Shown here in pieces: positions 1 to 860 of a stretch of 860 nucleotides of DNA (its first letter is position 1; each line of letters starts with the position of its first letter). A program made the translations under genes and the position numbers. This DNA comes from a phage, in sequence record S81550.1, one strand, 5' to 3'. The notes beneath the pieces were generated by a model. That model did not search any database. It was not told where the DNA came from and saw nothing but the letters and a program-made list of their open reading frames with translations.

Positions 1-5
1 GGGTT

Positions 6-21
6 CCCCCCCGTAGGGGGG
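6..21 (+). promoter_or_regulatory. 5'-terminal stem-loop (C-run/G-run hairpin), presumed replication cis-element
   Basis: Seen directly: CCCCCCC (6-12) and GGGGGG (16-21) are perfectly complementary around a 3-4 nt loop (GUA), giving a very stable GC-only hairpin right after the terminal GGG. By established knowledge, Qbeta and MS2 carry an equivalent 5'-terminal hairpin whose complement forms the 3' end of the minus strand. Confidence 0.65.
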
Positions 22-46
22 TACTCTATGTAGTAGCAACCATTAC

Positions 47-56: not shown

Positions 57-860
57 ATGCCACGTCTACCTAGGGGACTTCGATTCGGAGCGAACATGGA
101 GGTCTTAAATGACTTCCAGGAACTCTGGTATCCAGAGTCCCGCGTCGATTCCGATACGATTTTCCCTTTGTATACCTTCAAAGGTAACATGGGTGGCTCT
201 TTTTTCGACACTTACGGCACAAACAATATTGTCCGTCAGGTTCGAAGGACGCCACACCGTGCTACAGTTCCTATAGCCTCTTCTGGCTTAAGGCCCTGTA
301 CCTCTGTATGGTATGACCCATCCAGCTTGCTTTTCAGGATTCCTGAAATGAGAGCGGTTTGGGACAATGGCATGGGTGATACTGGAGATATTGTCTATAA
401 TGACTTTCTCTTCAATACGCCGGCACCTAAGGAGTTCGATTTCTCTAATTCCTTAGCGCCACGCTACAGTAATGCCTTCTCTGCTTTTAACGCTAAATAT
501 GGCGTTATCATTGGAGAAGGGCGCGAGACACTTAAGTATTTCGCGCTATTACTTCGCAGGCTACATAAAGCAGTCCGTGCCGTTCGGCACGGAGATTTAC
601 GAGGTCTCCGGAGGATCCTTGACTCTTACCATAAGGGTCATTGGAAGCCTGCTACTGCTGGTAATCTCTGGCTCGAATTTCGTTATGGCCTCGTCCCGCT
701 CTTCCATGACATCAAAGATGTCATGAACGACTGGACGCGCATTAACGATAAGATCCAGAAATATCGCCGATTCTCGGTGGGTCATGGTGAGGATTTTAAG
801 CTGTCTATCGACGGCTTATATCCTGGCCTTACTCATTTCCGATTATCTGGTGAGATTACC
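57..860 (+). CDS. A2: Maturation / lysis protein A2 (A-protein) of a Qbeta-like ssRNA phage; N-terminal 268 codons, 3'-truncated by the window edge
   Basis: My own translation from ATG 57 gives 268 sense codons with no stop through 860: MPRLPRGLRFGANMEVLNDFQELWYPESRVDSDTIFPLYTFKGNMGGSFFDTYGTNNIVRQVRRTPHRATVPIASSGLRPCTSVWYDPSSLLFRIPEMRAVWDNGMGDTGDIVYNDFLFNTPAPKEFDFSNSLAPRYSNAFSAFNAKYGVIIGEGRETLKYFALLLRRLHKAVRAVRHGDLRGLRRILDSYHKGHWKPATAGNLWLEFRYGLVPLFHDIKDVMNDWTRINDKIQKYRRFSVGHGEDFKLSIDGLYPGLTHFRLSGEIT. From memory, Qbeta A2 starts MPKLPRGLRFGA...NDFQELW and shares the blocks RQVRRTPHR, VPIASSGLRP, NDFLF, APKEFDFSNSL, AFSAFNAKYG, IGEG, LLLRRL, KPATAGNLWLEFRYGL, FSVGHGED and GEIT in the same order and spacing. 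Qbeta A2 is about 420 aa, so roughly 150 codons would lie beyond the window. Confidence 0.9.
   Translation, partial: MPRLPRGLRFGANMEVLNDFQELWYPESRVDSDTIFPLYTFKGNMGGSFFDTYGTNNIVRQVRRTPHRATVPIASSGLRPCTSVWYDPSSLLFRIPEMRAVWDNGMGDTGDIVYNDFLFNTPAPKEFDFSNSLAPRYSNAFSAFNAKYGVIIGEGRETLKYFALLLRRLHKAVRAVRHGDLRGLRRILDSYHKGHWKPATAGNLWLEFRYGLVPLFHDIKDVMNDWTRINDKIQKYRRFSVGHGEDFKLSIDGLYPGLTHFRLSGEIT

Follow-up and report, generated by a model that had tools for sequence, protein, structure and literature searches.

The window, which is the whole 860-nt stretch of DNA that was analyzed (S81550.1), was compared with a phage collection by megablast and by direct string comparison. All 860 of its 860 positions were identical to nt 1–860 of the phage M11 (Qubevirus durum) record AF052431.1; no difference was found, and the two share the same 5' untranslated region (UTR) and an A-protein coding sequence that begins at nt 57. 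M11 is an RNA coliphage with a plus-strand genome, assigned to the old serogroup III, and its sequence reportedly stems from a 1996 paper by Beekwilder. The AF052431.1 record is 4217 nt long and ends, beyond the window, in ...CUCCUCCCA-3'. It starts with GGG and finishes with CCCA, so both canonical ends are present in the deposited genome, and its annotation runs from the A-protein (57–1322) through the coat gene and the A1 read-through to the replicase gene. Because the match to AF052431.1 is 100%, the window start coincides with nt 1 of that deposited genome, which appears to be full-length. The first-pass annotation had proposed from the letters alone that the window begins at the genome end, and both this identity and the similar hairpins that open full-length Qubevirus records bear it out.

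All features described below lie on the plus strand. The 5'-terminal GGG (1–3) complements the CCC at the 3' end of the minus strand, the site of de novo initiation with GTP. It forms part of a complete 5'-terminal hairpin (1–26), delimited by RNAfold and by covariation among relatives, which is composed of a basal helix (1–4/23–26), a U5·U22 mismatch, a C:G stem and a tetraloop. Six of the seven C residues make up the 5' arm of the stem (6–11), and six G residues make up the 3' arm (16–21). The loop, CGUA (12–15), holds the seventh C, which is missing from phage MX1, where the loop is GUA. The remaining 5' UTR (27–56) carries a Shine-Dalgarno-like GGAGG at 47–51 and leads to the coding sequence start at 57. 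From there to the end of the window (57–860) run the N-terminal 268 codons of the A2 maturation/lysis protein, whose coding sequence (57–1322) continues past the window; this frame matches Pfam PF03863 (Phage_mat-A) with E = 3.7e-118. By the GenBank coordinates and the Pfam match, the hairpin is thus located upstream of the A/A2 maturation gene, the first gene of the genome.

The start of the window reads G1–G3, U4–U5, seven C (C6–C12), G13 U14 A15, six G (G16–G21), U22 A23 and then CUC. The counts of GGG plus C7/G6 reported in the first-pass annotation are exact, but the C-run had been placed directly after GGG, whereas UU intervenes. RNAfold paired C6–C11 with G16–G21 in six C:G pairs around the loop C12–A15, left U5·U22 unpaired, and closed the base with U4-A23, G3-C24, G2·U25 and G1-C26. 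Folding of nt 1–60 gave this hairpin at 1–26, a larger helix than the 1–23 first assigned to it. The hairpin has a predicted energy of -16.5 kcal/mol and accounts for 71% of the ensemble. Since there are seven C against six G, a second, slipped register, C7–C12/G16–G21 with a GUA triloop, is also possible. The same hairpin was present in the minimum-free-energy folds of the first 60 nt, of the 860-nt window and of the 4217-nt genome. In the full-length fold, GGG pairs locally with nt 24–26, while the 3' CUCCC pairs with nt 4124–4128. A terminal helix between 5' GGG and 3' CCC was absent from this full-length minimum-free-energy structure, a prediction compatible with a transient form of such a helix. 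A search of Rfam with nt 1–60 returned no match even at E <= 10; elsewhere, an Rfam snoRNA match on the minus strand at 366–422 (E = 4) was dismissed as chance.

Predicted structure extends well past the terminus. The 860-nt window folds at -374.5 kcal/mol, compared with -257 kcal/mol for shuffles (z about -17). For the corresponding 860-nt starts of MX1, Qbeta, FI BR1 and NL95, z was -11 to -18, and because these are similar, strong folding is a genus-wide property. In the predicted folds, nt 30–60, with GGAGG (47–51) and the A2 start codon (57–59), are closed within a long-range domain whose partners lie at about 640–658; nt 30, for example, pairs with nt 658 in both the 860-nt and the full-genome folds. 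As modeled, this domain would fit the structural control that is known to act on A-protein translation. Within the A2 coding region, a perfect 9-bp hairpin, UCCGUGCCG-UU-CGGCACGGA, was found at 574–593; among the perfect local inverted repeats of the window, it is the longest.

To what extent the terminal hairpin exceeds chance was evaluated by dinucleotide shuffling. The energy z-score was -2.0 for nt 1–26, with 10 of 200 shuffles folding equally well, and -1.7 for nt 1–60. Energy is weak evidence here because dinucleotide shuffling preserves the CC and GG runs. Composition and position are more telling... the stem of the terminal hairpin is the only perfect GC-only stem of at least 5 bp in the 4217-nt M11 genome. 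Among 2000 dinucleotide shuffles of that genome, GC-only stems of at least 6 bp occurred at a mean of 0.06 per genome, and none of the 2000 placed such a stem within the first 8 nt.

Full-length records of MX1, Qbeta Anc(P1), five environmental Qbeta strains, four FI strains, NL95 and SP were compared at their 5' termini. With the exception of SP, every record opens at nt 1 with three to five G residues that lead into a similarly built hairpin. A 5' GG(G) start was found in M11 and 13 related records, and the full-length Qubevirus records carry GGG to GGGGG at the 5' end and CCCA at the 3' end. The closest relative, MX1 (AF059242.1 = RefSeq NC_001890.1), is 88.6% identical to M11 overall and shares GGGUU, the C:G stem, GUA and the basal helix; it has C6 where M11 has C7, a GUA rather than a CGUA loop, and a predicted energy of -16.9 against -17.7 kcal/mol. 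The two 5' UTRs are identical at 55 of 56 positions, the sole difference being that one C in the C-run, whereas the adjacent coding part is 86% identical. Either the entire M11/MX1 UTR, beyond the hairpin, is strongly constrained, or the ends were derived from shared primers.

MAFFT shifted the C and G runs relative to one another, which made the terminus alignments unusable, and a pair table counted outward from the loop-closing pair was generated by script in its place. Pairs 1–4 are C:G in M11/MX1, in the Qbeta strains and in FI/NL95. Pair 5 is C:G in M11/MX1 and the Qbeta strains and G:C in FI/NL95. Pair 6 is C:G in M11/MX1, A:U in the Qbeta strains and G:C in FI/NL95; pair 7 is U·U, G:C and A:U in the same order, and pair 9 is G:C in all three. 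Compensatory changes thus keep the helix across three lineages, as seen in a loop-anchored table of only eight distinct sequences. Because the arms change by compensatory substitution across the genus, selection appears to act on the structure and not on an isolate-specific sequence.

Qbeta (AB971354.1; strains HL4-9, TW18, BZ1, BR12 and VK) resembles M11 in having a G-run at nt 1, a C-run, a 4-nt loop and a G-run, and its hairpin likewise precedes the A2 gene, with the same predicted role. Its terminal G count is four to five, compared with three in M11. The M11 stem had been described as longer and purer in C/G than that of Qbeta. This holds for consecutive C:G pairs, of which M11 has six and Qbeta five, but not for the helix as a whole: Qbeta forms seven uninterrupted pairs (five C:G plus A:U and G:C), whereas M11 forms six C:G pairs and then meets U·U, and the Qbeta mismatch, G·A or, in BZ1, G·U, is displaced outward by one pair. 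The energies of M11 and Qbeta Anc(P1) over the first 34 nt are equal at -17.7 kcal/mol. The environmental Qbeta strains (-21.3 to -21.8 kcal/mol) and the group IV phages (-23.6 to -27.2 kcal/mol) are more stable, so the M11 hairpin is among the weakest in the genus, whose range is -16.9 to -27.2 kcal/mol among records that retain the hairpin.

Beyond these close relatives, MS2, PP7, PRR1, AP205 and M carry an analogous GC-rich terminal hairpin of 10–13 bp with 5' GG or GGG (GAGG in M). Like M11, these phages and group IV (FI, NL95) have the GC-rich hairpin within 1–3 nt of 5' GG(G). The group IV arms, GGCCCC/GGGGCC, differ from those of M11, and the stems of group IV and the other single-stranded RNA phages, at 10–13 pairs, are longer than that of M11, with energies down to -27 kcal/mol. 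A stable GC-rich 5' hairpin is described as universal in single-stranded RNA phages and has been implicated in replication (PMC3561173), in agreement with the earlier description of this element as a signature of levivirus genome termini. No independent M11-like 5' end emerged from IMG/VR or the JGI metagenomes. In IMG/VR, the exact-pattern scan found no M11-like terminus, and the A2-protein scan found one Qbeta-like contig (IMGVR_UViG_3300019216_000421), which is uninformative as its nt 1 falls inside the hairpin loop. Two 18-nt matches from the exact-pattern scan of the JGI metagenomes lay on unrelated contigs and were attributed to chance.

Several database records of relatives were found to be anomalous. 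RefSeq NC_001890.1, titled 'Enterobacteria phage Qbeta, complete genome', equals MX1 AF059242.1 base for base and carries locus tags MX1p1-4; judging from the M11 comparison, it would be about 72% identical to Qbeta proper, and it labels the A2 protein 'head maturation protease'. M11 itself shares only 72% nucleotide identity with Qbeta Anc(P1), and M11, MX1 and Qbeta are all filed under Qubevirus durum. In SP, nt 1–30 of X07489.1 (also GQ153934.1) read GGGGGUAGGGGGGAUAAAGGGGGCC, compared with GGGGUAGGCCCCGUAAGGGGCC in FI/NL95, and the deposited sequence cannot form the 5' hairpin; a G/C compression error in the 1988 sequence, carried over into later records, is the probable cause. In GA (NC_001426.1), nt 1–40 show no hairpin at nt 1, unlike the other single-stranded RNA phages checked, and a hairpin is predicted from about nt 13, reflecting either a different terminus or an inexact old record. 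FrMerlot (PP430144.1), deposited as a 'complete genome', starts with UCCCCCC and is devoid of the terminal G run. Modern assemblies often lose the terminal GC hairpin.

These observations bear on how literally the M11 record should be taken. The hairpin could be real and the record inexact, with one or two terminal G missing or extra, or with C7 being in truth C6 as in MX1. The terminal G count does vary, from three (M11/MX1) through four (Qbeta Anc, FI) to five (environmental Qbeta strains, NL95); the 56-nt UTRs of M11 and MX1 differ by a single C in the C-run; the 1988 SP entry has GGGGGG for its relatives' GGCCCC, a broken hairpin that resembles a G/C compression error; and some 'complete' records, such as FrMerlot, are without their first nucleotides. 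Nevertheless, GGG is present in both M11 and MX1. The CGUA tetraloop of M11 is structurally more ordinary than the GUA triloop of MX1, which makes C7 plausible, and the Qbeta strains vary in an equivalent manner by substitution (UUUA or CUUA loop), indicating that nature tolerates one more C beside the loop. We consider an inexact M11 record unlikely, while exact homopolymer lengths and the first 1–2 nt of old records are not beyond question.

The replication role of the hairpin in M11 is proposed by analogy with the Qbeta literature. In Qbeta, both strands have 5'-GG and CCA-3', with de novo initiation by GTP opposite the penultimate C, and 5'-GG on the template favors addition of a non-templated 3' A (PMC4200798). 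Small replicable RNAs that are never exposed to cells need 5' stems, according to PMC4652763, citing Biebricher and Luce 1993. The small RNAs amplified by Qbeta replicase resemble M11 in having 5' GG(G) in a stem and 3' CCC(A); they are short non-coding replicons, whereas the M11 hairpin terminates a viral genome of 4.2 kb. In M11, the terminal G residues would be copied from, and into, the 3' CCC of the opposite strand, and it is there that the replicase would initiate de novo with GTP. The 5'-GG of the template would promote the non-templated 3' A with which every new strand is completed. The very stable local C:G hairpin would fold once the first ~26 nt of the nascent plus strand had emerged, and would act as the 5' stem on which Qbeta-type replicases depend to replicate efficiently in single-stranded, non-duplex form, helping to prevent product and template from pairing. 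A mirror hairpin would lie at the minus-strand 3' end; in it, the basal G·U becomes a C-A mismatch, and weaker pairing is predicted for the initiating CCC.

This asymmetry was evaluated using local partition functions in a 60-nt context. Plus-strand nt 1–3 were paired with P = 0.98–1.0, whereas the terminal CCC of the minus strand was paired with P = 0.83/0.13/0.40, the lower values arising because the G·U wobble becomes a C-A mismatch. The difference between strands was also seen in MS2, NL95 and most Qbeta strains, but was not clear in Qbeta Anc, PP7 and PRR1. As a model-based result, the asymmetry fits a replication role and is suggestive only. One further, quite improbable idea is that M11 and MX1 have tuned the hairpin base (U·U, G·U to C-A) and the slippage-prone C6/C7 to set the freedom of the minus-strand CCC and hence the plus/minus ratio; on this view, the single C that separates M11 from MX1 would be a real, functional polymorphism, not a sequencing difference.

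A 5' hairpin might also serve the RNA in other ways. In E. coli mRNA decay, 5'-terminal stem-loops without a single-stranded 5' overhang stabilize RNAs, and the M11 hairpin might mainly protect against 5'-end-dependent decay (RNase E access, pyrophosphate removal) rather than act in replication. G1 of M11 is itself predicted to be paired (P = 0.98), and protection is compatible with a replication role. As the main function, protection seems improbable: the literature assigns the element to replication (PMC3561173, PMC4652763), and small replicable RNAs outside cells also require 5' stems, as stated in PMC4652763.

The details of the M11 hairpin, namely the extra C:G pair and the U·U mismatch, could instead encode recognition by the M11 replicase only, in line with the isolate-specific recognition raised in the first-pass annotation. 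The arm sequences do differ among M11/MX1, the Qbeta lineage and group IV. These differences are mostly compensatory, so that it is the helix that persists; MX1 carries the same hairpin in a UTR that matches bar one C, and its replicase gene is 86.8% identical to that of M11 at the nucleotide level; the stability of the M11 hairpin falls inside the genus range; and no sign of sequence-specific contact was found. Recognition restricted to M11 is accordingly very unlikely, and genus-wide compensatory change speaks against the isolate-specific version.

The notion that the G and C runs are a non-viral cloning artefact (dG/dC homopolymer tailing or an adaptor), which runs of 6–7 at the start of a 1990s cDNA-derived record might invite, is almost certainly wrong: tailing yields one homopolymer at the extreme end, whereas here two complementary runs lie inside GGGUU...UACUC, the terminal hairpin recurs in unrelated genera and is treated in the literature as a general feature (PMC3561173), and covariation in independent isolates, with homologous nt-1 hairpins carrying compensatory substitutions in the independently sequenced MX1, five Qbeta strains, four FI strains and NL95, effectively refutes it. 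We conclude that nt 1–26 are very probably the genuine 5'-terminal hairpin of the M11 plus-strand genome, with the window starting at deposited nt 1.

The M11 5' hairpin and its role are already known and are ordinary for RNA phages. Loose ends are limited to older database entries and their precise homopolymer and terminal-G counts. That a true genome terminus can be recognized from raw sequence is of value mainly as a quality check. The element has been reused in the design of artificial RNA replicons, and the combination of a 5' stem with 3' CCC(A) is what allows Qbeta-type replicases to copy both strands exponentially without becoming trapped in duplex.
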